Positions 6,555 to 45,274 of a stretch of DNA of 64,000 bases are shown in pieces. The position numbers were made by a program, and so were the translations under genes. This DNA is from an uncultured Pseudomonadales bacterium (GTDB taxonomy: Bacteria > Patescibacteriota > Microgenomatia > UBA1400 > PJMF01): NCBI GenBank assembly GCA_964511345.1, contig CAZEEV010000002.1:2770-66769 (forward strand). Direction: 5' to 3'. The stretch's first letter is position 1; each line of letters begins with the position of its first letter. Under the pieces are notes generated by a model. The model saw nothing but the letters and a program-made list of their open reading frames with translations. It was not told where the DNA came from and ran no database searches.

Positions 6555-7502
6555 TTAATCAATTAAGTTTAGTAAGAAAATCTTAGTCTTCTCTCTGAGA
6601 GAAGTATTCGAAGCCTTTGTTTGTGTATTCTCAGTGGTTACTGCGTTCTCAGTGGTTATTGCGTTCTCAGAGGTAATTGCGTTCTCAGAGGTAATCTTTG
6701 AAGGTACTTCTGTGGGAGTGGGTGTTGCAGAAGTCATTGTCGAAGGCACCTCTTTTGGAGGAGCTTCCGTCACGATTGGTTCATAATCTCCATTTAAATA
6801 ATCTATAATTTTGCAATCATCACCACCACCTCCAAATAGCCCGCTTATACCACTGCATTCATCAGCAAGATTATTGTAGGCTCCACATCCCTCGCAGCCA
6901 ATACTCCCTCCGTAACAATTTTTACAATTGTTCAGATAATCAGAACATCCTTCTGGCACAGGCAAACTTGTACAATCAGCTGCTGTTATACCATCTGCTA
7001 TTTCAATCTCTTCACCCACTTTATCTTCTAAAGACTCTATAATTTCACAATCATCACCACCACTTCCAAGTATTCCACTTATACCACTGCATTTATCAGC
7101 AAGATCATTGTAAGCTCCACACCCCTCACAACCGACACCCGCTTCACGGCAACCTTTACAGTTATCTAGATAATCAGAACATCCTTCTGGCACAGGCAAA
7201 CTTGTACACTCTTCAGGGGTTGGACCATCGTCAGATTCTTGGGGGGGAACTCCACCGTTATAAGGATCACTACCATCCCAAGCCTGCTGGCGATTATCCT
7301 GACTTTGACCAATCTTAGAAACTGTAAAAGCCAGAGCAGTGATAATGAGTGTCAAAGAGAGAAAAAATAGAGTAATTTGCAAACGTCTCTTCTTTTTTCT
7401 GCGTTCAATTGCATTAACTTTATTATTCATCAAATTTAAACGAGTAACATTACGCTTTAGCTTCATACAATTGATTAAAGCACTAATTAATTTAAGTATC
7501 AA
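6555..7502 (-). CDS. surface protein with N-terminal signal anchor, two ~78-aa Cys-rich modules and C-terminal TSENAI hexapeptide repeats (paralog family A)
   Basis: TM helix near aa 45; SQDNRQQAWDGSDPY segment shared with the 42735 protein; duplicated CTSLPVPEGCSDYL-NCK-C--GCEGCGAYN-LAD-CSGISG module; Thr/Ser-rich tail. Confidence 0.5.
   Translation of the reverse strand: MILKLISALINCMKLKRNVTRLNLMNNKVNAIERRKKKRRLQITLFFLSLTLIITALAFTVSKIGQSQDNRQQAWDGSDPYNGGVPPQESDDGPTPEECTSLPVPEGCSDYLDNCKGCREAGVGCEGCGAYNDLADKCSGISGILGSGGDDCEIIESLEDKVGEEIEIADGITAADCTSLPVPEGCSDYLNNCKNCYGGSIGCEGCGAYNNLADECSGISGLFGGGGDDCKIIDYLNGDYEPIVTEAPPKEVPSTMTSATPTPTEVPSKITSENAITSENAITTENAVTTENTQTKASNTSLREKTKIFLLNLID
6630..6701. 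repeat. 4 tandem copies of an 18-bp repeat (ctcagNggtNaNtgcgtt) encoding (T/S)ENA(I/V)T hexapeptides
   Basis: Direct inspection: units at 6630, 6648, 6666 and 6684, the last degenerate. Confidence 0.7.
6806..7225. repeat. intragenic tandem duplication, period ~234 bp (two copies), encoding the Cys-rich module
   Basis: Identical 39-mer ataatcagaacatccttctggcacaggcaaacttgtaca at 6936-6974 and 7170-7208 with flanking similarity. Confidence 0.7.
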
Positions 7503-7596
7503 CCATAATTAGTAATCGAGCCACCTTATAAAAAACAACTGGTCAGTGAAAAACATCTAAAATGGGGTAGAATCTCCTTTATTCATAAACAAAATT

Positions 7597-8244
7597 ATGA
7601 TTAACAAACAAAGATTTTTCGAATTAACTAGTTCCATTTTTATTCTGATTATCGTTATTCCTGTTGGATTTTGTATTTATCCAATATTACTGTATTTCAT
7701 CGGCAAACCAATCATTTTCAAGCAAAAAAGAGTCGGTCAAAATGGCAAAGTTTTCGTGATGTATAAATTGCGCAGTATGTATAAAAACGCTCTAGAAAAC
7801 AGAGCTAAATACCTGGCAAAAAATGAAGCCCCGGCGCCAATGTTTAAAATTGCCAATGATCCACGTTTTCTTCAGAAAAAAATTCAGCTACCCTTCACTA
7901 AAAAAGTGCTTATTTTAAGAGTGGGTCGCTATTTGTCTCAATCAGGTATCGATGAAATTCCTCAACTTTTAAATGTCTTAAAAGGAGAAATGAGTCTTTT
8001 TGGCCCTAGACCTTTACCAGTGATAGAAGCTGAACAATTGCAAAAACTAGATCAAAAATGGTATAAGTGGCGTCATAGTATTAAGCCAGGCATATTCTCT
8101 GCTTGGGCATTAGATACCAAACATAATCAATCTTTCAATTACTGGAAAAAGCTGGAAAAAGAAACTTTACAAATGACCACCGAAAAACAAATTTCGACCA
8201 TCTGGAAAATTATTATTAAGCAACTAAAAAGAGCGCTGTTTTAA
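7597..8244 (+). CDS. undecaprenyl-phosphate sugar phosphotransferase (bacterial sugar transferase, WbaP/PglC-like small form)
   Basis: Bac_transf signature IDEIPQLLNVLKGEMSLFGPRPLP; single N-terminal TM helix; 215 aa. Confidence 0.8.
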   Translation: MINKQRFFELTSSIFILIIVIPVGFCIYPILLYFIGKPIIFKQKRVGQNGKVFVMYKLRSMYKNALENRAKYLAKNEAPAPMFKIANDPRFLQKKIQLPFTKKVLILRVGRYLSQSGIDEIPQLLNVLKGEMSLFGPRPLPVIEAEQLQKLDQKWYKWRHSIKPGIFSAWALDTKHNQSFNYWKKLEKETLQMTTEKQISTIWKIIIKQLKRALF

Positions 8245-8262
8245 GGCGCTCTTTTTATTATT
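8227..8262. terminator. rho-independent terminator hairpin between convergent genes
   Basis: aaaagagcgc stem, tgttttaag loop, gcgctctttt stem, then a T-rich tract; the stop codon sits in the loop; placed between the sugar transferase and rpsA. Confidence 0.5.
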
Positions 8263-8281
8263 TATTTTCAAATAGAAAAGT

Positions 8282-9475
8282 TTATTTATAAGCAATTGGC
8301 ATCGAGGTATCAACGATAGATAAACTCATACGACGCTGTTCTGGAACGACGTTTTCTACGTTTACTGTGACTTTTTCACCAACTTTAAGATCTACACCTT
8401 CTAATTTAGAGGCATGAATTAAAGCATCAACACCTTTTTCAACATTGATAAAAGCACCGAAAGCTTCCACTCTGGTCACTTCACCAGTGAAAGTTGTGCC
8501 AACGCCATAACGTTCTTCAATACTTTCCCATGGATCAGCATCTAATTGCTTAATAGAAAGATTGAGTTTGTTGGTTTTTTCATCAATACCTAAAACTTTA
8601 ACTTTAATACGATCACCAACTTTATGGTAATCTTTTGGATGGTTAACTTTTTCCCAAGAAATTTCAGAAATATGAATTAAACCTTCCACATAACCAATGC
8701 TATCTTTGGCTTCAGAATCTTTAACTGGCACTTCAACAGTTACAAAAAGGCCAAAATGCATAACGCCAGAAACTACACCATCATAAATCTTGCCTTCTTC
8801 AACACTGGAAATAGCTAAATCTTTTTGAGCCAATTCTTTAGCTTCGCTGACATGTCTCTCAGAGAAAATCAAGCGATTTTTTTCACGATCAACTTCGATA
8901 GCTTTGACTGGGAAAGCCATACCCTTGAGGTTTTGAATTTTACCCATGTATTTACGACTAAATTGACTAGATGGAACAAAAGCACGCACGCCATTGACTA
9001 AAACGATTAAACCACCACGGTTCATTTCGATACCCTTGGCTTCTAATTCCTGATCTTTCTCCATGGCTTCTTCAAAATATTCCCATTTAGCATCAGAGGC
9101 TGCACCCTTAAGAGATAAAACTACTTGGCCCTTGTCATTATCAGTTGAAATGACAATGGCTTTGACAGCATCACCTTCCTTGAGTTCTCTAACAAAATCA
9201 ACTGCAAATTCGAATTCTTTTTCGGAAACAATTCCTTCAGTTTTAGAGCCTAAATCAATGATTAGACTTTTCTTATTCTTTTCGACGATCACACCAGAAA
9301 CGGTGTCACCTTTTTTTGGGATCACTAGCTTACCTGCGTTAGCAGTTAAGAGCTCCTCCATAGTTTGTAATTTCTTGACCGTTTTATCAGTCATAGCAAA
9401 AATATTTCCTTTCTTTTTGGATTGCGAGATTGTATCATGAAAGTCAGAGTTTCGCACCTTAAACTCAAAGTACAA
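8282..9475 (-). CDS. rpsA: 30S ribosomal protein S1
   Basis: Four S1-like OB repeats (GDTVSGVIVEK, GGLIVLVNGVRAFVPSSQ, GKIYDGVVSGVMHFGLFV, GTTFTGEVTRVEAFGAFIN); 397 aa. Confidence 0.8.
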   Translation of the reverse strand: MYFEFKVRNSDFHDTISQSKKKGNIFAMTDKTVKKLQTMEELLTANAGKLVIPKKGDTVSGVIVEKNKKSLIIDLGSKTEGIVSEKEFEFAVDFVRELKEGDAVKAIVISTDNDKGQVVLSLKGAASDAKWEYFEEAMEKDQELEAKGIEMNRGGLIVLVNGVRAFVPSSQFSRKYMGKIQNLKGMAFPVKAIEVDREKNRLIFSERHVSEAKELAQKDLAISSVEEGKIYDGVVSGVMHFGLFVTVEVPVKDSEAKDSIGYVEGLIHISEISWEKVNHPKDYHKVGDRIKVKVLGIDEKTNKLNLSIKQLDADPWESIEERYGVGTTFTGEVTRVEAFGAFINVEKGVDALIHASKLEGVDLKVGEKVTVNVENVVPEQRRMSLSIVDTSMPIAYK

Positions 9476-9511
9476 AAATTAATTAACATAAATAAAGGTA
9501 AACAAAAAAAT

Positions 9512-10804
9512 ATGCTTCACACTCCTAAAGTTCTAGATATTAAAGACAAAACTGTGCTGGTCAGAGTTGATTTTAACGTGCCACTCAAAAAAACTATTGA
9601 TAATGGCACTCCTAAATACAACGTGGCTGATGATCAACGCATTAGGAGTTCACTAGAAACTTTACTTTTTTTGAAAGAACACGACGCAAAAATTATTCTT
9701 ATTTCTCACCTTGGAAGACCAGATGGTAAAGCAATTAAGGAATTTAGTTTAGAACCAGTAGCTTCCTATCTCAAAAATAATCTTGGATTGGATGCGCAAT
9801 TTGCCGCAGACTGCATAGGCAATCAAGTGACTAAAAAAGTTGCCGAATTAAAAAAAGGCGAAATTCTATTACTAGAAAATCTTCGTTTCCATGAGGAAGA
9901 AGAGGCTAATAATGCTGATTTTGCTAAAGAAATCATCAGAGACACCAAGGCAGAAGTGTTTATTAACGAAGCTTTCTCTGCTTCTCACAGAGCTCACGCC
10001 TCTGTCGTAGGCATTGCTCCATTTTTACCAAGTTTTGCAGGTTTTGATTTAGCAGCAGAAGTTAATATTTTAATTAAAATCTTGGAAAAAGCTCCTCGCC
10101 CATTTGTAGTGGTACTTGGCGGAGCAAAAATTGATGACAAGGTTTCTGCAGTTAGAAATTTGTCCAAATTAGCCGACCTAGTTCTGGTTGGTGGAGGGAT
10201 TGCTAATGCGTTCTTAAAAGCTAGTGGTATTGAGGTGCACAAATCGTTTATGGGAAAAAATGCAGAAGAAAACGTTAAAATTGCTAAAGAAATTCTTTCT
10301 GAACACCAAACAGAAAGAACTATGATCGATGTAGAAACAAACAGCAAAGGTTTGCCACTACCAAAAGTGGTAGTACCAGTTGACGTTTTAGTTGCCAAAA
10401 ATCCAGATGTAAGTAATGAACGGGAAGTGACTCGTCTCGAATTATTAAAAAATGTTAAAGACAGCGAGACTGATTTAGATCTTCAATACTTAGATATTGG
10501 CAAAGAAACTATAGCTTTATATAAATATTTATTATCAAAAGCTAAAACAATTTTTTTCAACGGCCCACTAGGCGTCTTTGAGAATCCACTTTTTGCCAAA
10601 GGTAGTAGAGAAATTGCTAAAGCTATTGCCAACAATACTACTAACTCAGCAACCGTCACTATTTGCGGTGGAGGTGAAACCAACGCGGTGATTAATGCTT
10701 GCGGTCTGCGAGACCGTTTTACTCACGTTTCAACAGCCGGCGGAGCCGCTTTAGAGTTCTTAGGTGGAGAAAAGTTGCCAGGTATTGAAATACTAAAAAA
10801 GTAA
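9512..10804 (+). CDS. pgk: phosphoglycerate kinase
   Basis: KTVLVRVDFNVPL, ILISHLGRPDGK, VVLGGAKIDDKV, GGGIANAFL, ICGGGETNAVI, STAGGAALEFLGGEKLPGIE. The ORF-track start at 9422 overlaps rpsA; the ATG at 9512 (MLHTPKVLD) is the likely start. Confidence 0.9.
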   Translation: MLHTPKVLDIKDKTVLVRVDFNVPLKKTIDNGTPKYNVADDQRIRSSLETLLFLKEHDAKIILISHLGRPDGKAIKEFSLEPVASYLKNNLGLDAQFAADCIGNQVTKKVAELKKGEILLLENLRFHEEEEANNADFAKEIIRDTKAEVFINEAFSASHRAHASVVGIAPFLPSFAGFDLAAEVNILIKILEKAPRPFVVVLGGAKIDDKVSAVRNLSKLADLVLVGGGIANAFLKASGIEVHKSFMGKNAEENVKIAKEILSEHQTERTMIDVETNSKGLPLPKVVVPVDVLVAKNPDVSNEREVTRLELLKNVKDSETDLDLQYLDIGKETIALYKYLLSKAKTIFFNGPLGVFENPLFAKGSREIAKAIANNTTNSATVTICGGGETNAVINACGLRDRFTHVSTAGGAALEFLGGEKLPGIEILKK

Positions 10805-10819
10805 TTTAAATTTTGGTAG

Positions 10820-12979
10820 CTATTCTTTGGGTAACGGCCAAAAGCTGCTCCAACTGTCTATATCTTTGAAATGTTCGTGTATTTTTTCTAGTCTCACCTT
10901 TTCTTCTGGAGTCTTGCCAACAGCAATTACTTCACGCCATAGAGACCAAGCAAAGTTTGGCTGCTTAGCTATTATTTCTTCTGTCAAAACAAAATAATCG
11001 TCTAACTGGTCATTTTTAAATAAATAGGTTAAAGTTTTTCCATAGAGGCCCATGTACTCATAAAAGTATTTATTCATTAATTCCGGATTAAAATCTTTAA
11101 AATACTTAAGAAAAATTGCAACTTGAGACAAATTATTGTCATCCAAAAAAGCTGATCGTCTATCTCCCATGACAAATTTATTAAGAAAAATGGCTTTTTT
11201 ATAATAACTAGCTGCCAATTCTAGATTTTTTTCTGTATAAGCTTGATTAGCAAAATTGAAGAATTGCTGAGACAAATTCCTCTGATCCCAATAATTTAGA
11301 AAGATCCCATTGTTTAAAAAGTTGTATTTAACGAGCACTTCAATATATTTATTTGCAAGAAGATCAGCAGTTCGATAATCATATTGGTCAAATTCCACAT
11401 TATTGATAAAAGAAGATGGATCAAGATCGGCATATTCAATCTGTAAAATTGCTCTTTTGTCAGGGTTTACTGAAGCAATAGAAAAAAATCTAAATAGAAA
11501 CTCAGTATCATATTTATAAAGCGGATATAGAGTCATAAAATTTTCATATGACAATTTTCGATCATTTAAAAGCAAGCGAACTTGGCGATCTGAATATGGC
11601 AAATATTTAACAATCAATCCTGATTTATTAAACCTATAAAGGACCTGCGCAAAGAAGCTATATATAGCAAAAAAAGCGGTAATGATTAGGATAAAGATAT
11701 AGTATTTTTTATAGAACTTTGTTTTCAAATCAACTCTATTATGATGATCTTCTCTTAAAATCATGGCTAAAAATATTAGAGTTAAAGTAAAAATAACAAA
11801 AAAGTTCCAATCAAAATCAAACATAGCATTTAGTAAAGATGCAGAAGCAGCTAACCATAAAAATTTATATAAATGCTCATTATCACTTTTGATGAGTACA
11901 AAGCTTCTATGGAAAATATAGAATACGAAAAAAATAAAAAAACCACCAACTAATATTCCACATTCAGCTAAATTATGTAAAAAGATATTGTGAGCATAAG
12001 AAGTAACTTGCTGATCTTTAATAGGAAATTGACGATTAGCAAAACCAAAATTTTTAAGCCCTACTCCAAAATAAGGATTTTGCTTAAAAATAAGTATAGC
12101 TTTTTTCCAGTATACAAGGCGATAATTCTCCAAAAGTGGTTTGCAAATTTCTTTGTTTGTAAATACGAGAGGACAAAAACTTTCTCCATTCTTATTGAAA
12201 GGTATGGAAAGAAATAAAAACAATATTCCTATTGATAAAAAAGTAAAAATAAATGTTTTACCAATAATTCTAATAAAATTGTTATTTTCTAAAGAAGCAA
12301 AAGCTTTTTTGTTTGTAAAAAAAATTAGAATTAATTGAATTAAAGAAATCAATAAAGCCAATCTCGCTAAACTTAGAATAATTAACAAATATGAAGAAAT
12401 TAATAAAATAATTATTAAAAGATTAGTTTCTTTAGTATTAGTTTTTCTTTCACCTTTAAATAGAAATTGCCACCAAAAAATAGGTATCATTAGCAATAAG
12501 AAGGCAACGTAATGATTATGCCCATAATTTCTTACTAATAAGTTCATGCCTGGAAAAATATCCTGTTGATTTTTATAAAAGGTAAAAAATAAAACAAAGA
12601 TATTAATTATCAGGGTCATAATTGACGAAAAATAAAAAAACAACTTAGGTTCGATGGTATTAGTTTTAGAAGAATTAAAGAACACAAAAATGGCCAAAGA
12701 TACTAAGTAAAAAAGCAATTTTTCAATAGATAGTGGAATTTGCCTTGAAAAGATAATACTCAGAGCAAATAGCACTGATAAAATTAAGGCAAAGACAGAT
12801 GCTTTCGGCATTTTTGGTTCAAAGAAGTTAATCTTATCAGCCAATCTACTAAAAAATAATAAAAAGATGGTCCATAAACTAAATAAATAGAAGCGATACT
12901 CTCCCTCAATTAAAAAAAATGATAAAAGGAAAAGCAGAAAAAAAATGGGATAAAAAAAGTTTCTAAAAAATTTTTCCAT
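10820..12979 (-). CDS. O-antigen ligase/polymerase-like (Wzy_C) membrane protein with large C-terminal non-membrane domain
   Basis: About 12 TM helices and the motif YAHNIFLHNLAECGILVGGFF, typical of the Wzy_C/WaaL family; 719 aa. Confidence 0.55.
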   Translation of the reverse strand: MEKFFRNFFYPIFFLLFLLSFFLIEGEYRFYLFSLWTIFLLFFSRLADKINFFEPKMPKASVFALILSVLFALSIIFSRQIPLSIEKLLFYLVSLAIFVFFNSSKTNTIEPKLFFYFSSIMTLIINIFVLFFTFYKNQQDIFPGMNLLVRNYGHNHYVAFLLLMIPIFWWQFLFKGERKTNTKETNLLIIILLISSYLLIILSLARLALLISLIQLILIFFTNKKAFASLENNNFIRIIGKTFIFTFLSIGILFLFLSIPFNKNGESFCPLVFTNKEICKPLLENYRLVYWKKAILIFKQNPYFGVGLKNFGFANRQFPIKDQQVTSYAHNIFLHNLAECGILVGGFFIFFVFYIFHRSFVLIKSDNEHLYKFLWLAASASLLNAMFDFDWNFFVIFTLTLIFLAMILREDHHNRVDLKTKFYKKYYIFILIITAFFAIYSFFAQVLYRFNKSGLIVKYLPYSDRQVRLLLNDRKLSYENFMTLYPLYKYDTEFLFRFFSIASVNPDKRAILQIEYADLDPSSFINNVEFDQYDYRTADLLANKYIEVLVKYNFLNNGIFLNYWDQRNLSQQFFNFANQAYTEKNLELAASYYKKAIFLNKFVMGDRRSAFLDDNNLSQVAIFLKYFKDFNPELMNKYFYEYMGLYGKTLTYLFKNDQLDDYFVLTEEIIAKQPNFAWSLWREVIAVGKTPEEKVRLEKIHEHFKDIDSWSSFWPLPKE

Positions 12980-13009
12980 TACTTTCTTATAAGAATATAC
13001 TCAATATTA

Positions 13010-14335
13010 TCACGATCCAGGGTGAACAACATAAGCTTTATATAATTTTTTAAACTCATTAAATCTACCATATCTAAATTCACACAAATTTTTGAGAAAC
13101 AATAAAGCAAACTTCCTAATAAATTTGCCATCTAATGAATGAAAAGACGAAGAAATACTTCGTATTCTCAAGATTGACGTCTTTGTTATTTCTTTCTCTA
13201 AGAGTTTGTTAATAGGCGAAAAAATGTGTAAATGCTGTTCAGAATTTAGATAAATTGGTCTAATGCCTAATTTCAATAAACGGTTATACTGGGCAAGAAA
13301 TTCAGTCTTGATATCATCAATTTTAATCAAACCTAAATTTAACCTCAACATAAAAAAGAATAAATTATAAAATTTGCCACTCGAATCAACTAAGCTTTTG
13401 ACCTTATCTACATCTGTACAGGGCTTACCTCTTAAAAGATTAAAGTGCATTGAGTAATCAATAGGATTTTGAGCCAATTTTAACTTTTCCAAATCAGACT
13501 GTTTAACTAAATTGGGCATAATAGAAACTACATTTAAAGACATTGAATTTACTTCATCGAGAATTGCCTGATTAACTCTGCTAGAAATTCCAAAGTCATC
13601 AGCATCTATTAGGGAGCAGAAAAAAACACTTCTAAAGAAATATTTAGTTTTAATAATAGAAATTAAATCACTAATAGTTGATTTAATTCTTCTAGTTCCA
13701 AAATACCTTGATTTTCTTAATTCAACTATTTTCTGCGGTAAATCAACAAAAATAGCACCATTTTTAGTTAAACGTAAGATTAGCTCCGTATCAAAAAGCT
13801 CATTTTGAGTTCGACAGCTCTTGGCAATTTCCACTAAGTTTTCAGATTTGCGAAAAGCCTTAATTCCATGAGTATCGGTCCCTGGATAGTTGAGCACTAA
13901 TCTTAAGAAAACATTGAAAAAATAAGTCATCATTCTTCTAAAAAAAGACCTCTGGTCATCGCTACTCGTTAAAGTTTTGGATCCAATTACAACGTCAATT
14001 GTTTTCAACAACTTATTAGCTTTCTCTATAAAATCAAAATCAAAATAATCTACATTTAATACAAAAACATTTTTCCCAACAGCGTTAAGAATGCCCCACC
14101 TAATAGCCATACCATATGATGGACTTGGAAAGTGATGGGCTTTAACAAAAGCATACTTTTTTTCTAATCGTTTAGCTATTAACCAAGAATTATCACTACT
14201 ACCATTTTCTACTAAAATAACTCCAAATTTATTTTGATATTTTTTATTTGCAAAATCGAAAAATTTAGTTAATTGATTTTCTAAAAATAAGGCCTCATTG
14301 TGAATTGGGAAAATGAATGAATAAATTTTTAGCAT
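13010..14335 (-). CDS. bifunctional GT2 glycosyltransferase fused to a YdjC/ChbG-like carbohydrate deacetylase
   Basis: N-terminal YSFIFPIHNEALFLE...VILVENGSSDNS (GT2); C-terminal CSLIDADDFGISSRVNQAILDEV matches the YdjC family N-terminal ADDFG signature. Confidence 0.6.
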   Translation of the reverse strand: MLKIYSFIFPIHNEALFLENQLTKFFDFANKKYQNKFGVILVENGSSDNSWLIAKRLEKKYAFVKAHHFPSPSYGMAIRWGILNAVGKNVFVLNVDYFDFDFIEKANKLLKTIDVVIGSKTLTSSDDQRSFFRRMMTYFFNVFLRLVLNYPGTDTHGIKAFRKSENLVEIAKSCRTQNELFDTELILRLTKNGAIFVDLPQKIVELRKSRYFGTRRIKSTISDLISIIKTKYFFRSVFFCSLIDADDFGISSRVNQAILDEVNSMSLNVVSIMPNLVKQSDLEKLKLAQNPIDYSMHFNLLRGKPCTDVDKVKSLVDSSGKFYNLFFFMLRLNLGLIKIDDIKTEFLAQYNRLLKLGIRPIYLNSEQHLHIFSPINKLLEKEITKTSILRIRSISSSFHSLDGKFIRKFALLFLKNLCEFRYGRFNEFKKLYKAYVVHPGS

Positions 14336-14338
14336 TTT

Positions 14339-16790: not shown

Positions 16791-16809
16791 TTGCGTAAGC
16801 TACATTAAA

Positions 16810-25473: not shown

Positions 25474-25499
25474 TTCTTGTTTATAATAAGCTATAAAGC

Positions 25500-28753: not shown

Positions 28754-28758
28754 TCTTC

Positions 28759-33490: not shown

Positions 33491-33540
33491 ATTGCTTTGC
33501 TTTCTATAAATTATACCATCTGTTATGATGTTGGAAATAA

Positions 33541-36120: not shown

Positions 36121-36159
36121 TATTTATAGTAATTAAGCGGTTTAAAACAAAAAATAAAA

Positions 36160-37730: not shown

Positions 37731-37732
37731 AA

Positions 37733-38929
37733 TTAATTAAAATATAATTTACTAATAGCTTTGAGGCTAAATTTTTCTACTATTGTCTTCGTTGCTGACT
37801 TACCGATTTCATTTAAAACTTTATCATTATAATTAAAAATCAGTTTAAGTACTCTATTGAGATCATTTGAATCAGCTTCAATTAAAAAACCATTTTTACC
37901 ATCAGTAATAATTTCTCGTCCTCCACCATTTTTGCTTGCAATAGTGACAAAACCCATTGCCATAGCCTCTATCGTGGTGAAGCCAAAAGGCTCATATCTA
38001 GCTGGGAAAATAGCAATTCCTTTGATTTTTTTGAGTAAAACTATTAAATCTTCCAAATTTTGTATCTCTTCGTAGAAATGAATTCTTTTTATAACTTTTT
38101 GGTCAAAATTTTTTAAATTTAATAAACTATCAATCGTTACTAATTCATTGTTATCTGGAAAATCTTTCATTTTTTTTCCAATGATATGCAATTTTAAATT
38201 TGGATCTTTTACCGCCAAGTCTATAAAAGAATCGAGCAAAACATCAACTCCTTTTCTGTATTCTACTCTTCCAAAATATACTAAGTTGTTTTTGTTTATT
38301 TTTTCTTTATTAAGATAAAGAGTGTGGTCGATAAAGTTATGAATAACTTTTGATTTATTTCTCAGATAGCTATGTTTTAACAGATGCTTGCGCTTAACGT
38401 TATAACTGCAATAAATTATTTCATCAGCAACATATCTGAGGTAATAATTTTCTATTGCTATCGCCAATTTCAAATCAAAATTTTCTGGCTGATTGAAATT
38501 AGTTATTTTTACAGAACCCTGAAAAGGACTAACTATTTTAGTTCTAGGATAAAAAGCATGAATTAAGATAGCTGAAGAGTGATAGGAAGGAGAAAATATT
38601 AAATCAAAGTTTACTTTTCTTGCTAATTTTCTAAAAACAAAAAAAGATAATAAATTAAAATCCAAAATTAAAACTGATCTTGGAAAAAATCTTTTAAAAA
38701 AATTTATCAAAAGATAATAAAAATGATTAATAATTCTATTAAAAGGAGCTCGCCTTAGATAATGAATTTTATAATTGTTTTTTTGCTTTAACTTTTTACT
38801 ACCATAAGTAATAACGTGAACATTATGACCATTTGCAACTAATAAATTGGTTAGATTTTCATTAAATCTAGCAACACCTCCCCAATTTGTCTGTGGCGGA
38901 AATTCTGGAGATACGATTGCAATGTTCAT
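37733..38929 (-). CDS. GT4 glycosyltransferase
   Basis: Classic GT4 C-terminal block YEPFGFTTIEAMAMGFVTIASKNGG...NGFL. Confidence 0.75.
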   Translation of the reverse strand: MNIAIVSPEFPPQTNWGGVARFNENLTNLLVANGHNVHVITYGSKKLKQKNNYKIHYLRRAPFNRIINHFYYLLINFFKRFFPRSVLILDFNLLSFFVFRKLARKVNFDLIFSPSYHSSAILIHAFYPRTKIVSPFQGSVKITNFNQPENFDLKLAIAIENYYLRYVADEIIYCSYNVKRKHLLKHSYLRNKSKVIHNFIDHTLYLNKEKINKNNLVYFGRVEYRKGVDVLLDSFIDLAVKDPNLKLHIIGKKMKDFPDNNELVTIDSLLNLKNFDQKVIKRIHFYEEIQNLEDLIVLLKKIKGIAIFPARYEPFGFTTIEAMAMGFVTIASKNGGGREIITDGKNGFLIEADSNDLNRVLKLIFNYNDKVLNEIGKSATKTIVEKFSLKAISKLYFN

Positions 38930-40179
38930 TTATCCCTCAATTGTTTAGAAAAATACATTTTTGAATACCTGTAATCAGCAAGCATCGAAATTACTGTATC
39001 AGATAACGATCCAATACCAACATCTATTGGCATATATCTATGAATAAAAGACAAAAGCCTGGGATCAAAATTTTGAAACTGGGGGGTAATTACAACATCC
39101 TGGCCGAGACAGCCAATCGAATGATCTCGCATAATCTCAATTTTCATTCCAGCCAAAGCTACTGGTAAAATCATATGAGAACCGAGTGTTCCAATTATTA
39201 ATTTACTTTTAGAATAAAGTTTGCACATTTCTTTATCTTTACTTTGACTAAAATGAGCTATCCTAGAATCATTGATCCATGATGGAAACTTTATTTGTTT
39301 TCCTATACCAACAAGCAAAAACTTAGCATTTGGGAATGCTTTTTTTATTTTAGAAAAAAGCAAAATAATTTTTATAGCCTGAACCAAAAAAGAGAAATTT
39401 TTAAGGGCATTAAATGCCAAAAATTTATCAAGAATTTTGCTTGATAGCCATGGTCGATCCTCTCGCCAATAAAAACTAATTACCAATTCTTCACTTTCTA
39501 AATTATGTGGCTCACATTTAACATAATCTGGAACATTAACATTTCGAGGATGACAATTAGTTTTATTAAGATAAAAAGAACTAAACCTATTAAGCTGTTG
39601 ATTAATCTTCTTTTCTAATTTCAAATAATATTCTTGAGCTTCTCTAATCGGAATATTAACTATCCAAGTTTCAGCAACATAATCTGGAATTAACCATTCG
39701 ATACTTTGAGGAGCTATGACAATTAAATAATTATTTACATCATTTTTATATTGATCACAATTGAACAATTTTAATAAACAATGACCATATAAAAAATCAA
39801 TGCAATTAATGATAATTACTTTTTTGTTTTTATAACTAACTGCTATTTTTTTAGTTACTTTTAAAGCTATATCTTTTGAATTTGGATTTTTTAGTGATTC
39901 CAAAAGTGGCTGACCAAACCATTTTTGAGAGTGATTTTCTGGACCAAATAATTTCCAATTAGTGGTGTCTACGCCAAAAGGATAATATCTCGCATGCCCA
40001 ATAATTAAATCTTGTACAAAATCAATATTACAAGCATCGCAATGTCCAGATACACAAACATGAATTCCTGTCCAAATAGGTTTTTGATCACTTAATATTT
40101 TCGAACAATATGGACAAAAAACCTTTTGATTAATAAATGGTTTGAGTTGAATAGTATTAATAGGCAATTTATGATTCAT
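38926..40179 (-). CDS. hypothetical protein with N-terminal Cys4 zinc ribbon
   Basis: CPYCSKIL...CVSGHCDACN near the N-terminus; 417 aa; translationally coupled in the glycan locus. Confidence 0.3.
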   Translation of the reverse strand: MNHKLPINTIQLKPFINQKVFCPYCSKILSDQKPIWTGIHVCVSGHCDACNIDFVQDLIIGHARYYPFGVDTTNWKLFGPENHSQKWFGQPLLESLKNPNSKDIALKVTKKIAVSYKNKKVIIINCIDFLYGHCLLKLFNCDQYKNDVNNYLIVIAPQSIEWLIPDYVAETWIVNIPIREAQEYYLKLEKKINQQLNRFSSFYLNKTNCHPRNVNVPDYVKCEPHNLESEELVISFYWREDRPWLSSKILDKFLAFNALKNFSFLVQAIKIILLFSKIKKAFPNAKFLLVGIGKQIKFPSWINDSRIAHFSQSKDKEMCKLYSKSKLIIGTLGSHMILPVALAGMKIEIMRDHSIGCLGQDVVITPQFQNFDPRLLSFIHRYMPIDVGIGSLSDTVISMLADYRYSKMYFSKQLRDK

Positions 40180-41108
40180 TTTGGTCTAAATAAATTTCTA
40201 GATATAGCTAATTTGACAGCATCTTTTTGGAATCTTTCTTTTACTTCTCCAGCATAATGTAAATAAGTTATGTCTTTTAATTTTTCTGGCTGATATTGCC
40301 AATATAACCATAAATTCAAATATTTGTTAGCTGACAGAATTTTGCTTTTAATTTTATCGAACAAAATAATTAGAGCGTCTTCTTCCACTATAAAATGCCT
40401 GGCAAATTCTACTTGGACAGCTAATTTAAAGACTTTATCCAAAAATGCTAAATCTATGCATTCTTTATTAGGAAAACCGATCATTCCGCAACTCATATAT
40501 ATGTGTGAGCTGGTGGCAGAAAAGATTTTTCTAAGTAAGCGTCTAACGACCATAGCTAGGTCATCATTTGTCCTCGTTTTTTCTTTCCACTCATGGACAG
40601 AATAGAGACCAAGATTTTTTTTAGAATAAAGCCAGTCAAGGACTTCTTTTGGTTTTTTATAAAATAAAACATCAGAATCGAAATTGATAAATCGATCGAA
40701 AGGGTTGAGAAGAAAAGCATCGAATTTATTTCTCACCATATTCTTAGAATAGTTCTGAGAAAATCTATATTCTGTAAAAGACGGATAATTCTTTAAAAGC
40801 TTTTTCATTTTTGTATCACACCATTTTTTAGATGGAATTATGACTGTAAAAAATTTAGACAACTTTTTTTTATCAGCCTCTGTCAAAGACCCATCACTAA
40901 CAATAAATATTGGGAATGGTCGGTTTGCACTATAAAAAAATGAGCTAATAGAATAAATAAACATGTCAACATATCGATGGCATAATAAAGCAGTAATGCC
41001 AATCGAATTATCTACAGGAGATTCTGTCTTTTGACTAGGAAGGAAATTTACCAAAAATTTAAATATAAATTCTTTAATTTGTCTCTTTAAAATAAAGTGC
41101 TTAGGCAT
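40176..41108 (-). CDS. hypothetical protein, possibly a nucleotide-sugar-dependent transferase
   Basis: 310 aa; DxD-like FINFDSDVLFY; SDGSLTEAD; immediately downstream of the wzt-like gene. Confidence 0.3.
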   Translation of the reverse strand: MPKHFILKRQIKEFIFKFLVNFLPSQKTESPVDNSIGITALLCHRYVDMFIYSISSFFYSANRPFPIFIVSDGSLTEADKKKLSKFFTVIIPSKKWCDTKMKKLLKNYPSFTEYRFSQNYSKNMVRNKFDAFLLNPFDRFINFDSDVLFYKKPKEVLDWLYSKKNLGLYSVHEWKEKTRTNDDLAMVVRRLLRKIFSATSSHIYMSCGMIGFPNKECIDLAFLDKVFKLAVQVEFARHFIVEEDALIILFDKIKSKILSANKYLNLWLYWQYQPEKLKDITYLHYAGEVKERFQKDAVKLAISRNLFRPK

Positions 41109-41826
41109 TTTTAAATCCTATTATTTTATCGCAACTCTTTTCTAAATAATCCAACCACTGGCTAACCATTATTATGGTGACATTATTCTTAAACATTTCT
41201 TTCATAGCCTCATTAGACCTTTTCTTAAAGTCATCATCGCCTGTATTCATTACCTCATCTAAAAGCAATATGTCTGGTTCTGCATGAATGGCTACACTGA
41301 AACCTAAACGCAACTTCATACCACTGGAATATGTATATAAAGGAGCGGTGATAAAATTACCAAGTCCAGCAAATTCTACAATCTTTTTAAACTTATGCTC
41401 GATTTCTTTTCTAGACATTCCAATAATCAAACCATTTAAAAATACATTTTCTTGACCAGTCAAGTCAGGGTGAAAACCAGCCTCTAAATCAATAAGAGAG
41501 ATGATACGACCCTTAGTTTTAACTGTGCCTTCAGTTGGAGAACTAATACCAGCAATAATTTTAAGGAGAGTGGTCTTACCAGCTCCGTTACGTCCATAGA
41601 AACCAATTTTTTCTCCTCTGTGAATTTGTAGAATAATATTTCTAAGAGCCCAATACTCTTCATTCTTTTGAAAATGTAAGACTCTATTTACGTCTTCTGC
41701 TAAAGTTGGTTTTTCGTGGTGAACAATATATTTTTTACCAACATGTTTCAGGTCAATCACCACTTCCTCATTTAATCTTTTCTTTTGTAGGACTTTTTCT
41801 TCTAGAATTGTCATTCTTATAACCAA
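41101..41826 (-). CDS. wzt: polysaccharide ABC exporter ATP-binding protein (Wzt/TagH/KpsT-like, short form)
   Basis: Walker A GRNGAGKTTLLKIIAG; signature YSSGMKLRLGFSVAIH; Walker B ILLLDEV. Confidence 0.8.
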   Translation of the reverse strand: MVIRMTILEEKVLQKKRLNEEVVIDLKHVGKKYIVHHEKPTLAEDVNRVLHFQKNEEYWALRNIILQIHRGEKIGFYGRNGAGKTTLLKIIAGISSPTEGTVKTKGRIISLIDLEAGFHPDLTGQENVFLNGLIIGMSRKEIEHKFKKIVEFAGLGNFITAPLYTYSSGMKLRLGFSVAIHAEPDILLLDEVMNTGDDDFKKRSNEAMKEMFKNNVTIIMVSQWLDYLEKSCDKIIGFKNA

Positions 41827-42656
41827 TCATCAAAATTTTTATTTTGTTGCTTGAAAATTTTTAACCCCAAATGAAAAATGTAAAAAACTATTAATAAACT
41901 TACCCAACTAAACTCAACTAATGTGAATGGCAATCTCATTAATGCAAAATGAAACATTTCAATAATTAAAGTCATCGGATTCAAATAGAAAAATGGCCTT
42001 AATAACTGTGGTAATAAATCAAGAGCGTAAATTACAGGAGTAGCGTAAAACCAAAGCATAACTGCCAATTGCACTATAAAATTTACATCACGAAAACGTA
42101 CGTTCAGAGAAGAAGCCAATAAAGATAGTCCTGAAGTAAATAATAAGAGCAATAAAACCGCTGGAATCAGCCATAACATTCTACCTAAATAGAAAAATAA
42201 TTGAATAAAACCGTAACCTTCCAAAATCATTTTGTCACCAATCAATAAAATAACCAACATTAGTAAAGCTACTAAAAAATGAAATAAATTAGATAAAATA
42301 ATTGATAAAACAATTGATTCTCTAGGAAACTTAGCTTTTTTTATTAAATTCCTCTCATAGAAAAAAGCTGGTGTGGTTTTAGTCAAACTTTGCGCAAAAA
42401 AATTCCACGGCAAAAGACCAGCAAATAAAAATAGGAAGTAATTATCAACGCGAACCGGTACAAAAAATTGAAAAACAAAACCCATAACAAGCATCTGTAA
42501 CAAAGGATTGATAATAATCCATAAAAACCCAAGCGTCGCATTTTTGTAGCGAGCTTTTATTTCTTTTTGCGTCATCACCACTAAAAAGTCTATCCAATGC
42601 CTCTGTTTTTTATTTAATTTAAAAAAATGTCCCATCAAGCCATCAAGATACCACAT
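41817..42656 (-). CDS. wzm: ABC-2 type polysaccharide exporter permease (Wzm/TagG-like)
   Basis: Six TM helices; position immediately upstream of, and overlapping, the ATPase gene. Confidence 0.7.
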   Translation of the reverse strand: MWYLDGLMGHFFKLNKKQRHWIDFLVVMTQKEIKARYKNATLGFLWIIINPLLQMLVMGFVFQFFVPVRVDNYFLFLFAGLLPWNFFAQSLTKTTPAFFYERNLIKKAKFPRESIVLSIILSNLFHFLVALLMLVILLIGDKMILEGYGFIQLFFYLGRMLWLIPAVLLLLLFTSGLSLLASSLNVRFRDVNFIVQLAVMLWFYATPVIYALDLLPQLLRPFFYLNPMTLIIEMFHFALMRLPFTLVEFSWVSLLIVFYIFHLGLKIFKQQNKNFDDWL

Positions 42657-42734
42657 TAATACCCTCTTGCAAAGATAAACAAAAATAGGATATTCTTATA
42701 AACGTCAGCATTTTTATTTGCTGCTTGGCTGCCA

Positions 42735-44279
42735 ATGTACAATCCTAGAGACTTTATTCCAACAAAATACAAGAAAAATATTGATAAGGTCAGTAGTTCT
42801 TCTGATGATGAAAAACCAAGTGAGTCAATTATCGACTCTCCATGGAGTGATTTAGCTAAAGAACCACAAACTCCAGAGTATCGCAGTAACATCACTCTTA
42901 GTGAAAATGGTATTAAAAACGAATTAAATGCCTCAAGTAAACTTGAAGAATTAAAAGAAATCAGCCAAGAAGAACAGACTCCATCTAGTTTAAATTTAAA
43001 AAATAAATCTAGTAATAAGAAAAAACTAACCGGTCTTTTAATGGTTTTCTTTTTGGTTATCGGTGGTTTTGCTAGTTACATGCTTAGTCAACAAAATCAA
43101 GATAATCGCCAACAGGCTAGCACTGGTAGTGAGGATCCATATCCAACCGATAATAGTTGTGGAACAAACATGACAAGATGGTCTGATGGATATTGCAGGT
43201 GGGATAATTGTAGGGCAACATCTAACGGTAAAATACTCTGTGGCTACATTACCGATCAAGATGCCTGTACAGAACAGTCTATGGGTGGAGATTGGTGCGA
43301 TAATCCAAATACTAGCCGCGTAGAAAATTGTGAAGAATCAGGCTTAATGCGCTGTCAATGCAGTGCTGGTTGGTGGGTAATTGGTAAAGCCCCTAGTTGT
43401 AGTGAGTTATGTGGCGATGCCAACGCAGACTGTGATGATTGTCCTACCCCAACTCCTCCACCTGGTGGTGGAGGTGGCAGTGGCGAACCAACTCCAACTC
43501 CTACTCCTCCAGCTGAGCTTTTGGCTTGTGGGACAACTGGTTGCACACAAAATGACGATTGCCAAAATGGCTTAACTTGCCAATCAGTAACAGTGAATTC
43601 TCAATCAACTGGTATTTGTGCTAAAGGAGAAAATCAGCTTTTCTGTGCTGCTAACCCTACTACAGATAACTGCTGTATTAGTCAAGCTATGCCAGTTTGT
43701 GCCAGTATTGAAATGCTTGATGCAAGCAACAATTTAATGACTGGCGATGCTGATAAAAACCTAAAGGTTGGAGATGAAGTACGTTTCCGTTGTAATGCTG
43801 TTGGCAACCAAGATGTTGATTTTGATTATCAATTCAGAATTTGGGATAAATCTACCACTACATGGGTAGACATTACCGATAGCAGCGGAACTGTAGCAAA
43901 GAATATTTCCGATACATATAAAATTAATAATTTCAGTAAGCACGTCGTCCAAGGTCGCATTTGCTGGGGAACCGAATGCCAAGTCTGGGAAATAGTCGAA
44001 GGAGCACCAACGACAAAAGGAGAACCACTACCGCTAATTAATGACGTTAGATCGCTAAACTGTTTTGAGGAAAATGCTATTCCATGCGCAGATGGTTACA
44101 TTTGTTCTGCCACTCCAGCAGGTGGCTGTCCTTCATCAGTAACAGTGAATGGCGAAGAGCTTGTGAGCGCCTGCGCCAGAACACCATCTTGCATGAAAGC
44201 AGAAGGAATCGAATGCGAGACAGTTAAAGATTGTTTTGATGGGTATAGCTGTCAAGAAGGATTTTGTACAAAACAATGA
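42735..44279 (+). CDS. surface protein with signal anchor, Cys-rich modules and Pro/Gly/Thr linker (paralog family A)
   Basis: TM helix at about aa 100; SQQNQDNRQQASTGSEDPY shared with the 6555 protein; linker PTPTPPPGGGGGSGEPTPTPTPP; modules CGTTGCTQNDDCQNGLTCQ; 514 aa. Confidence 0.5.
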   Translation: MYNPRDFIPTKYKKNIDKVSSSSDDEKPSESIIDSPWSDLAKEPQTPEYRSNITLSENGIKNELNASSKLEELKEISQEEQTPSSLNLKNKSSNKKKLTGLLMVFFLVIGGFASYMLSQQNQDNRQQASTGSEDPYPTDNSCGTNMTRWSDGYCRWDNCRATSNGKILCGYITDQDACTEQSMGGDWCDNPNTSRVENCEESGLMRCQCSAGWWVIGKAPSCSELCGDANADCDDCPTPTPPPGGGGGSGEPTPTPTPPAELLACGTTGCTQNDDCQNGLTCQSVTVNSQSTGICAKGENQLFCAANPTTDNCCISQAMPVCASIEMLDASNNLMTGDADKNLKVGDEVRFRCNAVGNQDVDFDYQFRIWDKSTTTWVDITDSSGTVAKNISDTYKINNFSKHVVQGRICWGTECQVWEIVEGAPTTKGEPLPLINDVRSLNCFEENAIPCADGYICSATPAGGCPSSVTVNGEELVSACARTPSCMKAEGIECETVKDCFDGYSCQEGFCTKQ

Positions 44280-45274
44280 ATATAGATCAACATCAAACAC
44301 CAACCACTTATTTAAAATCCAAAGATGGGCATAGTTCTGGTGTAATGAAAAAAACAAGTAACTTTAAAGCAATTCTAATGGCTCTTGGTTTGCTAGTGTT
44401 TATTGGTGGAACAGTCAGCGTTTTTCTCATCAGTCAAAAACAAGACACCACTCCAGTAGCTCCAAATGCTCCACAATCACAACCGGCCGCTTATATTGAA
44501 AAAACACAAACCTGTACCCTAGAGTTTGAAGTAACAGAACCTGAAGAAGAAAAAGTTTCTTGTGGTAATAGTGGATGCACTAATACTGACGACTGTGTCA
44601 GTGGTTATGTTTGCGTTTCTACTTCAGCCACAGATGATGACGGCAATATTATGAAGTATTGTGCTGACGAGGATTATTTAGACGCATGTGTTAATAATCC
44701 AAATCAAAACAATTGTTGCGAAGCACCAGAGGAAAATAAATTAGAATGTGGTGAAAAAGGTTGCGATAATGACGAGGATTGCGAGGATAATTTAATTTGT
44801 GTTGATGCCGATGGCAACAATAGATATTGTGCTAAAGAATCATATCAAGATGCTTGTGCAGATGATCCGGATGAAGAAACCTGCTGTGAAGCACCAGCTA
44901 CAGTCACTCCTACTACTACACTCACCACTACGCCAACTGTTACGCCTACGACAACTGTAACTGCAACACCAACTAACAAAACTACTACCGTAACTCCCAC
45001 TGCAACAGTAACGACTATCATCACCACTGTCGGTTGCAATGAGACCTGCAAGGCTAACGCAGATTGCAGCAACGTAAGCCATATTTGTTATGGCGGACAG
45101 TGCCGTTTAGATGTCAATCCAACCGATAGCCAATGTAAATTACCTAATGGCGAAACCACGATCGTCCGTCCAGTGACAGTTCCAACTCAAAGTGGTCCTG
45201 CCAACTGGGCAAACTATGTCAAGGCAGGGCTTGGTACTTTAGGTATTGGCGCTCTCTTGCTACTACTTCTCTAA
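44264..45274 (+). CDS. surface protein with signal anchor, Cys-rich modules, 45-aa Thr-rich mucin-like stretch and C-terminal hydrophobic tail (paralog family A)
   Basis: CGNSGCTNTDDCVSGYVCV and CGEKGCDNDEDCEDNLICVD modules; TVTPTTTLTTTPTVTPTTTVTATPTNKTTTVTPTATVTTIITT; C-terminal GLGTLGIGALLLLLL. Confidence 0.5.
   Translation: MYKTMNIDQHQTPTTYLKSKDGHSSGVMKKTSNFKAILMALGLLVFIGGTVSVFLISQKQDTTPVAPNAPQSQPAAYIEKTQTCTLEFEVTEPEEEKVSCGNSGCTNTDDCVSGYVCVSTSATDDDGNIMKYCADEDYLDACVNNPNQNNCCEAPEENKLECGEKGCDNDEDCEDNLICVDADGNNRYCAKESYQDACADDPDEETCCEAPATVTPTTTLTTTPTVTPTTTVTATPTNKTTTVTPTATVTTIITTVGCNETCKANADCSNVSHICYGGQCRLDVNPTDSQCKLPNGETTIVRPVTVPTQSGPANWANYVKAGLGTLGIGALLLLLL

Follow-up and report, generated by a model that had tools for sequence, protein, structure and literature searches.

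A low-GC glycopolymer biosynthesis cluster of a Microgenomates bacterium, its glycosyltransferases of the GT-C fold and the cysteine-rich proteins that flank it

Background

We report the analysis of a 64,000-nucleotide stretch of DNA (the window; contig CAZEEV010000002.1 of assembly GCA_964511345.1, positions 2,770 to 66,769 of the forward strand) from an uncultured bacterium of the Candidate Phyla Radiation (CPR, or Patescibacteria), in which genes for three cysteine-rich proteins, here called P1, P2 and P3, bracket a locus rich in glycosyltransferases. The interval holds a glycopolymer biosynthesis cluster of ~35 kb, low in GC and dependent on an ATP-binding cassette (ABC) transporter; the host is a CPR bacterium of the Microgenomates (Woesebacteria/Pacebacteria-like). 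Our reading, to which we give a probability of about 0.55, is of a wall-glycopolymer cluster whose GT-C-fold glycosyltransferases decorate the polymer, flanked by a P2-P3 operon and by the near-orphan P1, and decoration of the glycopolymer is the most likely role of the GT-C enzymes. An earlier note on this DNA had proposed that these enzymes glycosylate P1, P2 and P3 rather than a lipid-linked glycan; for this we find no specific support, the GT-C genes lying in the glycan cluster and P2-P3 beside the exporter.

The bacteria of the CPR are mostly uncultivated and their envelope chemistry is almost unknown. The locus represents a concrete parts list for a decorated surface glycopolymer in the Microgenomates, and among its parts are a GT-C family that is missed by current hidden Markov model libraries and a GT2-YdjC fusion protein that possibly makes a de-N-acetylated, lipid-linked sugar donor. 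Through it a C-terminal sorting module that is widespread in the CPR also comes to light; this is LPXTG-like and has no charged tail. Searches of the literature on CPR glycosylation and surface proteins, on sortases and LPXTG proteins in Patescibacteria and on the envelope or Cys-rich proteins of Microgenomates returned nothing relevant. Current models cover neither the GT-C family and its pairing with GT2-YdjC nor the P2 family and the LPXTG-like module, and no account of them turned up in the searchable literature. The system as a whole fits known paradigms; a pairing of the GT-C enzymes and the proteins as enzyme and substrate is conjecture.

Gene content of the glycan cluster

The GC content is 0.24-0.33 across ~12000-42000, which corresponds to the glycan cluster, versus 0.35-0.39 in the flanks (the range in the window is 0.24-0.39). 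Pfam scans covered every open reading frame (ORF) of the window of at least 100 amino acids (aa). They identify enzymes for building a chain (a Bac_transf initiating transferase, a WecG/TagA protein, four GT2 and four GT4 enzymes), for tailoring it (a NodU-type carbamoyltransferase, TylF and other methyltransferases to a total of three or four, three SGNH domains and an epimerase/dehydratase) and for exporting and ligating it (an ABC-2 exporter with ABC_tran and ABC2_membrane domains, and a pair of Wzy_C proteins). Neither a Wzx/MOP flippase nor an LCP ligase is found among the scanned ORFs, and the window holds no sortase gene.

The initiating phosphoglycosyl transferase (7597-8244, + strand; PF02397, E 4.7e-39) stands at an edge of the cluster that is kept in the related loci L004, L017 and L020. 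Further in lies a conserved core (22203-31487) which encodes, in order, an epimerase/dehydratase-SGNH fusion, a GT4, a GT2, a Wzy_C protein with a single-transmembrane (TM) partner, a GT2, a GT4 and, at its end, a WecG/TagA-family transferase (30717-31487). This gene set recurs in L004, L008, L017, L018, L019 and L020. The gene content between WecG and the exporter varies in every relative; in the window this part (31570-41108) encodes a TylF-type O-methyltransferase, a GT4, a PQQ-like/DUF5060 protein, a GT2, a methyltransferase, a GT4 and two unannotated proteins. Together, the drop in GC and the variable gene content are typical of a diversifying surface-polysaccharide locus. The 859-aa PQQ-like beta-propeller/DUF5060 protein (33541-36120) is kept in the glycan cluster of L001/L004, L017 and L018 and may serve in extracytoplasmic glycan processing or glycan binding.

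The exporter, of a polysaccharide or teichoic-acid type, comprises an ATPase (41101-41826, - strand; PF00005) and a permease (41817-42656, - strand; PF01061), and it diverges from P2 across a 78-bp spacer. Towards the other end of the cluster, two SGNH/GDSL proteins (15801-16790 and 18885-19994) stand on either side of the carbamoyltransferase (16947-18701), and orthologs of the latter and of SGNH proteins occur in L020; an S-adenosylmethionine-dependent methyltransferase follows (20088-20753, + strand).

GT-C-fold glycosyltransferases and a GT2-YdjC fusion

The first GT-C-fold glycosyltransferase, paralog a (14339-15811, - strand; 490 aa), belongs to a family without a Pfam or NCBIfam model. 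Its AlphaFold2 model is confident (predicted local distance difference test score, pLDDT, 86; predicted template modelling score 0.87) and superimposes on solved GT-C enzymes as a multi-spanning membrane fold of the GT-C_A class. The closest structural match is ALG12, with Pmt4, AglB, AftA and ArnT near behind, and because these enzymes act variously on protein, lipid-linked-oligosaccharide, lipid A and arabinan acceptors the acceptor type cannot be read from the fold. Among 18 homologs the loop-1 motif of the family shows no variation at D40 and E41 and at least 90% conservation at E39. The family profile aligns with a PMT_2-annotated neighbour in L018 over TM1-5 (hhalign 95.4%, E 1.9e-8), the loop-1 motif falling on the GDE of that protein, which suggests that the family is remotely related to PMT_2/ArnT-type proteins.

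Paralog b (20762-22194, - strand) is split into two ORFs, 21343-22194 for the N-terminal and 20762-21346 for the C-terminal part. The break occurs at an A7/T5 run (21340-21362), with stop and start overlapping (ATATGA). When joined, the two parts align with paralog a at 43% identity over 481 aligned residues, gap-free at the junction, and the ortholog in L017 is unbroken; the break may mark a pseudogene with a frameshift, a mistake in the assembly or a gene that is split. The GT-C candidates have no significant Pfam or NCBIfam family, and PMT (PF02366), PMT_4TMC (PF16192) and PMT_2 (PF13231) give no match at E <= 0.01 to 14339-15811 or to either half of 20762-22194. The family profile finds zero matches among PDB sequences even at E <= 10.

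The earlier note had described at least two GT-C genes with a PMT/ArnT-type D-E loop motif. Fold and invariant D-E hold for paralog a, while the second gene proves to be two ORFs; the likeness to PMT/ArnT survives as the remote alignment with the PMT_2 neighbour, with ALG12 as the closest structure and no match to PF02366 or PMT_2 at threshold. The structure prediction that it had suggested as a check does bring Pmt4 and ArnT among the matches to a GT-C fold, but does not separate acceptor types. It had further spoken of polyprenyl-phosphate sugar synthase-type GT2 enzymes in the plural, and of these we retain one, by a weak match: the GT2-YdjC fusion (13010-14335, - strand; PF00535 + PF04794), whose gene adjoins paralog a.

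The YdjC half of this protein matches solved YdjC and chitooligosaccharide deacetylases, and the GT2 half has weak matches to Dol-P-Man synthase (5mlz, E 0.015) and, at full length, to ArnC (9hwj, E 0.095). Since one half resembles Dol-P-Man synthase and ArnC and the other resembles sugar deacetylases, a de-N-acetylated lipid-linked donor is suggested. We regard the fusion as a putative polyprenyl-phosphate (amino)sugar synthase and deacetylase, and as the putative donor-making partner of the GT-C enzymes, which may make and then de-N-acetylate a polyprenyl-phosphate-linked sugar in the manner of ArnC plus ArnD or HpnI plus HpnK. It is from the adjacency of this gene that we infer a polyprenyl-phosphate-linked donor for the GT-C enzymes.

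A model for polymer assembly and decoration

The genes present, their neighbourhoods and the GT-C fold are observed; from these we infer the following enzyme roles, donors and acceptors. The small phosphoglycosyl transferase (7597-8244) would prime polyprenyl phosphate, the WecG/TagA-family, GT2 and GT4 enzymes would build the chain in the cytoplasm, methyl- and carbamoyl-transferases would modify or cap it, and the ABC-2 transporter (41101-42656) would export it. Outside the membrane the two GT-C paralogs would add side-chain sugars from a polyprenyl-phosphate-linked donor, which the GT2-YdjC protein would make and which may be an amino sugar that has lost its N-acetyl group, as ArnC/ArnD/ArnT and GacI/GacL suggest by analogy. 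The SGNH proteins would act on O-acyl groups and the Wzy_C proteins would be ligases, passing the polymer to its final acceptor.

We favour decoration by the GT-C enzymes because a GT2 and a GT-C in a wall-polymer cluster with an ABC exporter are the published layout of multi-component transmembrane glycosylation. In such systems the C55-P-sugar made by a GT-A enzyme is the donor from which a GT-C enzyme moves the sugar to a wall polymer outside the cell, and examples include GtrA/GtrB/GtrC, CsbB/GtcA/YfhO, GacI/J/K/L and the lactococcal WpsA/B/G/J (PMC8035078, PMC10821137). The window shares with them a GT-C encoded beside a GT-A/GT2 in a wall-glycopolymer cluster with an ABC-exported backbone, an acidic motif in loop 1 of the GT-C and the presence of several GT-C paralogs per cluster. 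It differs from them in that its GT-C family is modelled in neither Pfam nor NCBIfam and is only remotely similar to PMT_2 by profile, in that its GT2 carries a fused YdjC deacetylase-like domain and in two further respects that weigh against our reading. The first is that no GtrA- or Wzx-type flippase for a polyprenyl-P-sugar occurs among the scanned ORFs, and the list of ORFs of 50-100 aa (not Pfam-scanned) shows no obvious unassigned gene-sized candidate for one. The second is that the GT2-YdjC protein has no obvious TM helix. To these are to be added, on the same side, the weakness of its likeness to known polyprenyl-P sugar synthases (E 0.015-0.095), and the two Wzy_C proteins beside an ABC exporter in an organism without lipopolysaccharide (LPS), which are unexplained here and are a hallmark of protein O-glycosylation clusters of the S-layer (slg) type. 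Furthermore, the genomes compared below represent one narrow lineage, so that conserved adjacency may partly reflect shared ancestry, and GT-C-type genes of three families recur in the cluster next to P2-P3 (in the window, L010 and L024), which keeps a protein acceptor in consideration.

The system of ArnC (a GT2 that makes an Und-P-sugar), the deformylase ArnD and the GT-C transferase ArnT follows the same order of logic, from GT2 to de-N-acylase to GT-C, and ArnC is the weak full-length match to the GT2 half of the fusion. However, ArnT acts on lipid A, which is not expected in this organism, the de-acylase of the window is of the YdjC family and fused to the GT2 rather than an ArnD-type polysaccharide deacetylase, and the GT-C proteins of the window have no PF02366 or PF13231 match at threshold.

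Gene neighbourhoods in related genomes

A search of genome contigs with the P2 profile gave seven loci and a search of metagenomes with the GT-C profile gave four, a small and phylogenetically narrow sample. Every homolog is from a CPR assembly of the Microgenomates type, under the label Woesebacteria, Microgenomatus or Pacebacteria. The ABC-2 pair directly and divergently adjoins the P2 homolog in nine of the nine P2-side loci with an upstream flank (L001, L007, L008, L009, L010, L014, L015, L024 and L025), and a P3-like gene comes after P2 in every locus with a downstream flank. Such constant adjacency to the exporter suggests a functional tie of P2-P3 to the exported polymer, as acceptor or as scaffold.

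The GT-C genes keep different company. In all five distinct GT-C-side loci (L004/L005, L017, L018, L019 and L020) their place is within the conserved glycan cluster, where one to three paralogs stand in tandem and further unannotated proteins of 8-12 TM segments are encoded nearby. There are up to 3-4 GT-C-like genes per cluster. The GT2-YdjC fusion is encoded within 10 kb of them in four of the five (L017, 13060-14382; L018, 11484-12800; L019, 11464-12201; L020, 19827-21119), and in none of the five is there a P1, P2 or P3 homolog within 10 kb of a GT-C gene. Conversely, a GT-C-like protein (at least eight TM segments) is encoded within 10 kb of P2 in only two of the nine P2-side loci. One is L010, where a remote member of the GT-C family lies 8-9 kb from P2 (hhalign 90%, E 1.7e-6). 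The other is L024, the closest relative (P2 74% identical), where a PF02366 PMT/ArnT-family protein (34 bits, cutoff 22.7) and an 11-TM, YfdI_N-annotated protein stand, together at 5551-8382, directly beside the ABC-2 exporter, 3-4.5 kb from P2. The GT-C genes of the window are 20-28 kb from P2-P3 and within glycan operons, and in one relative a GT-C gene and P2 likewise share a contig, ~17 kb apart. The PF02366 and YfdI_N proteins of L024 were also considered as members of the GT-C family of the window and were rejected (hhalign probability <1%).

These neighbourhoods bear directly on the earlier proposal, in which the GT-C enzymes are PMT-like and transfer single sugars from polyprenyl-phosphate to Ser/Thr residues of the P1-P3 linkers at the membrane exit, and they make it quite improbable. 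GT-C enzymes do glycosylate proteins in the actinobacterial Pmt and Pseudomonas TfpW systems. The PMT enzymes (GT39; yeast Pmt1/2/4, actinobacterial Pmt) resemble those of the window in the D-E of the first extracytoplasmic loop and in having candidate Thr/Pro-rich acceptors encoded nearby, such linkers being present in each of P1, P2 and P3. Pmt4 is a good structural match, and GT-C-type genes do approach P2-P3 in some relatives (the PF02366 gene at 3 kb in L024, and the remote family member in L010). Yet the GT-C proteins of the window match neither PF02366 nor PF16192, have no MIR domain and end in a soluble domain that is a small alpha/beta unit; ALG12 is a better structural match, and AglB, AftA and ArnT match equally or nearly as well as Pmt4. 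Their context is that of a polysaccharide cluster, at a distance from P2-P3, and a set of 3-4 GT-C-like genes per cluster suits stepwise glycan assembly more than a single protein-directed enzyme. The supposed acceptors also speak against it: P1 is a near-orphan, the linker of the P2 homolog P0036 is without any Ser or Thr, and Thr/Pro linkers are common throughout an LPXTG-like family of at least 289 representatives (described below).

Wzy_C proteins and a possible ligation to protein

A long Wzy_C membrane protein of 719 aa with 11 hydrophobic segments (10820-12979, - strand; PF04932, E 1.2e-12) carries a C-terminal extension of ~300 aa and has orthologs in L004, L017, L018 and L020; it is a candidate ligase or O-oligosaccharyltransferase. 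Neither a TPR nor any other Pfam domain is detected in the extension. A second Wzy_C protein of 528 aa (26341-27927; PF04932) lies within the conserved core and is trailed in every locus seen (the window, L004, L008 and L017-L020) by the conserved 285-aa single-TM protein (27896-28753), for which there is no family assignment. The pair might be a ligase or polymerase with its accessory or chain-length protein. Searches of PDB sequences with both Wzy_C proteins gave no match, and there is no sequence criterion that separates O-oligosaccharyltransferases from WaaL-type ligases or Wzy polymerases.

The slg clusters of Geobacillus comprise WsaP, Wzm/Wzt, WsaB with a Wzy_C domain (an O-oligosaccharyltransferase) and 2-O-methyl capping; they are low in GC, in two of the species the gene of the target protein lies near the cluster, and WsfB and PglL have C-terminal TPR regions (PMC2943079). 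In an arrangement of this type one or both of the Wzy_C proteins would move a capped, ABC-exported glycan en bloc from polyprenyl diphosphate to Ser/Thr residues of surface proteins, be they P2/P3 or others, like WsaB, PglL and PilO, and the GT-C enzymes would only branch the glycan. We consider this doubtful. The combination of Bac_transf (PF02397, 7597-8244), ABC-2 exporter (PF00005/PF01061, 41101-42656), Wzy_C (PF04932, 10820-12979 and 26341-27927) and methyltransferases is that described for S-layer glycosylation in Geobacillus, and low GC and an adjacent surface-protein gene are further features common to the window and the slg clusters of Geobacillus and Paenibacillus. An LPS acceptor is not to be expected, the scanned ORFs include neither an LCP ligase nor a Wzx flippase to feed a Wzy polymerase, P2-P3 is beside the exporter in nine of nine loci and the 719-aa Wzy_C protein has its long extension. 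On the other hand, that extension is without the TPR, Wzy_C proteins serve also as polymerases and as ligases to lipid acceptors, and genes for LCP, Wzx or sortase proteins may sit elsewhere in the genome. The window also departs from the slg clusters in that P1-P3 lack SLH and S-layer domains and do not count as S-layer proteins, in having two Wzy_C proteins plus GT-C enzymes and in its CPR host, and glycosylation is here a possibility that we read from the genes.

A Wzy_C route to protein glycosylation is at least as plausible as a direct GT-C-to-protein route. Taking the two routes together, a CPR-specific protein O-glycosylation, with a methyl/carbamoyl-capped, ABC-2-exported glycan ligated by Wzy_C to the Thr-rich stalks of P2/P3, and/or single amino sugars added by the GT-C enzymes, may be entertained only tentatively. 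If the Cys-rich neighbours are indeed glycosylated, this would be the first protein O-glycosylation system to be defined in CPR bacteria and, by either route, these ultrasmall episymbionts would gain a glycoprotein coat instead of classical wall polymers.

The cysteine-rich proteins P1, P2 and P3

The three ORFs of the earlier note are present, with the start of P3 corrected to 44276, and its description of them as rich in Cys and furnished with Thr/Pro-rich linkers is upheld. The Cys content is 5.4% in P1, 6.8% in P2 and 6.8% in P3, against a mean of 0.95% and a maximum of 2.9% in the 54 other ORFs of the window. In each protein a single hydrophobic segment lies at the N-terminal end and 25 residues or more form a T/P/S-rich stretch, and the linker peptides of P2 and P3 include PTPTPTPP... 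and TVTPTTTLTTTPTVTPTTT.... The three proteins have zero significant Pfam or NCBIfam matches, in line with the earlier view that this protein family had not been described. They are plausibly extracytoplasmic.

Their supposed relationship as three paralogs, all bearing the segment QDNRQQA..DPY, is confirmed only in part. P1 and P2 have in common the TM segment and the QDNRQQA..DPY leader junction alone (BLASTP E 4e-4), and P2 and P3 share a ~55-aa CGxxGCxxxxDCxxGxxC...C...CC module (E 1e-6) and a weak leader similarity; between P1 and P3 there is nothing significant (best E 1.9), and the Cys repeat of P1 is a module distinct from that common to P2 and P3. The QDNRQQA..DPY motif occurs twice, in P1 and P2, in a six-frame translation of the window and is absent from P3. 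By sequence, the three are thus only partly paralogous, in a modular sense. We also considered QDxRQQA as a general mark of the secreted proteins of the window, an idea that was rejected on finding it in P1 and P2 only.

P2 (42735-44279, + strand; 35 Cys) we read as a Cys-rich envelope protein without enzymatic function, which would be associated with the membrane or the wall and has an FN3-like domain. An N-terminal tail of ~95 aa with the motifs PxDFxPxKYKK and SPWSDLAKEP precedes a TM segment (~43023-43091), the sequence QNQDNRQQA, a Cys-rich domain and a P/T/G linker (~43434-43520), and beyond the linker the CGxxGC module leads to a beta-sandwich of the FN3/Ig-like kind and a C-terminus rich in Cys. 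The P2 family, of 26 matches, is well conserved and keeps the tail motifs, QNQDxRQQA, ~30 invariant Cys residues and the P/T linker, the linker of P0036 being the Ser/Thr-free case noted above. The AlphaFold2 model has a pLDDT of 63 overall and of ~80-89 for residues 260-425, and the predicted beta-sandwich gives weak matches to FN3/Ig-like structures and nothing stronger. An N-terminal, cytoplasmic motif before the TM segment, P[A/T]KY[K/L]K, is common to P2 (FIPTKYKK, 42735-42780) and P3 (TPTTYLKSK, 44276-44330), and we take it to resemble the extended KxYKxGKxW/YSIRK-type leaders of Gram-positive LPXTG proteins. The second tail motif of P2 is conserved as SPWSDLAKEPxxPEYRS, and both motifs are seen in the P2/P3 homologs of L001, L007 and L008. 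Two distant proteins, P0042 and P0044, combine P2-type modules with SLH domains (PF00395) and tie the Cys-rich modules to wall-associated proteins of other lineages.

P1 (6555-7502, - strand; 17 Cys) is a secreted or anchored Cys-rich protein with a hydrophobic segment (~7308-7385), the leader motif SQDNRQQAWDGSDPY, two Cys-rich repeats of ~80 aa and a low-complexity C-terminal tail rich in T, S, E and N (~6603-6773). Its true start is probably the Met at 7466 or 7430. A search of 5.8 billion clustered proteins found a single homolog of P1, P0045, which is 41% identical and has the same architecture.

That P1 is not conserved is consistent with there being no functional link at all, P1-P3 then being unglycosylated, disulfide-stabilised adhesins or wall proteins that owe their position to the inherited gene order of a narrow lineage. 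All the related loci come from one Microgenomates sub-lineage, and the mevalonate genes downstream of P2-P3 are syntenic in most relatives, which indicates a general conservation of gene order. We nevertheless think this rather unlikely: the ABC-2/P2/P3 adjacency holds in L009, with a P2 of only 34% identity and different outer flanks on either side, and it survives despite the wide variation in cluster content upstream of the exporter.

P3 and an LPXTG-like C-terminal module

P3 (44276-45274, + strand) is not type II anchored and is probably a cell-wall protein of an LPXTG-like sorting class. Its ATG at 44276 overlaps the P2 stop (ATGA), which indicates that P2 and P3 are translationally coupled, as in a relative. 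The leader and two CGxxGC..CC modules are followed by a Thr-rich stalk (~44873-45034) and a C-terminal module (~45011-45271), in which a GCNxxCxxNADC...CRL mini-domain precedes a degenerate LPXTG-like sequence, VPTQSG, and a second, C-terminal hydrophobic segment that ends in LLLLL.

An exhaustive HMMER search of 1.84 billion representatives found this module in 289 proteins at E <= 1e-3. Most of them, which range in length from 44 to 1504 aa, match the last ~90-125 residues of P3 alone and carry the module at their own extreme C-terminus, with the consensus GCNxxCxxNADCSNxxHICYxGxCRL ... LPxELPQ[T/S]GPxDWxNWLKAGLxxLGxGALLLLLL. Motifs were counted in 150 members (P0046-P0195). LPx[T/S/A]G occurs within the last 50 residues of 109 of the 150, in 99 cases as LPx[T/S]G, and the most frequent forms are LPQTG, at the top, LPETG and LPQSG. 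The member P0113 scores 15.9 with TIGR01167, exactly the cutoff of that model, while P3 with its VPTQSG has no TIGR01167 match, and other members of the family carry RrgB-type isopeptide and DUF11 domains that are typical of sortase substrates. On the strength of the LPx[T/S/A]G counts, the TIGR01167 score and the isopeptide and DUF11 members, the module has the look of a sortase sorting signal in a form specific to this CPR lineage and barely detected by current models.

The resemblance to Gram-positive LPXTG substrates extends to the N-terminal leader, the modular repeats and the Pro/Thr-rich stalk ahead of an LPx[T/S]G and a hydrophobic segment, and to the isopeptide/RrgB-like domains of P3 relatives. 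It breaks down in the tail, which is not positively charged and ends in LLLLL or LLLFL (K/R is present in the last eight residues of only four of the 150 members), in the Cys mini-domain (GCNxxCxxNADC..HICY..CRL) that precedes the motif and in the VPTQSG of P3 itself. The 30 residues upstream of the mini-domain are on average 50% T/P/S (124 members), and the Thr-rich run of P3 occupies the same place, just upstream of the anchor module. Wall-spanning stalks hold the corresponding position, just upstream of the anchor, in Gram-positive surface proteins.

In L009, the most distant of the related loci, four consecutive Cys-rich paralogs (9042-13799) are encoded beside the ABC-2 exporter. Their leaders are of the QDLRQQA or ISQKQ form, their repeated modules read ECGYTPC..DC..LICVTA..YC..CC, their linkers are P/T or poly-Ser and their anchors are canonical LPxTG/SG. 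Because these paralogs join a QDLRQQA leader to LPxTG/SG anchors, the QDxRQQA segment is probably in a signal-peptide region. The type II anchoring that had been assigned to all three proteins is therefore doubtful for those with a QDxRQQA leader, and it is contradicted in P3 by the C-terminal LPXTG-like anchor.

Other genes of the window

The housekeeping genes rpsA and pgk are also found within the span of the cluster. Directly downstream of P2-P3 lies a complete mevalonate pathway with a polyprenyl synthase (45881-54283), comprising MVD, two GHMP kinases, a thiolase, an HMG-CoA synthase-like protein and an HMG-CoA reductase; these genes would supply the lipid carrier. Towards its ends (44-2383, 59051-60142 and 63291-63719) the window encodes a VirD4/TrwB-like coupling ATPase, a Fic-domain protein and a type IV secretion pilin-like protein.

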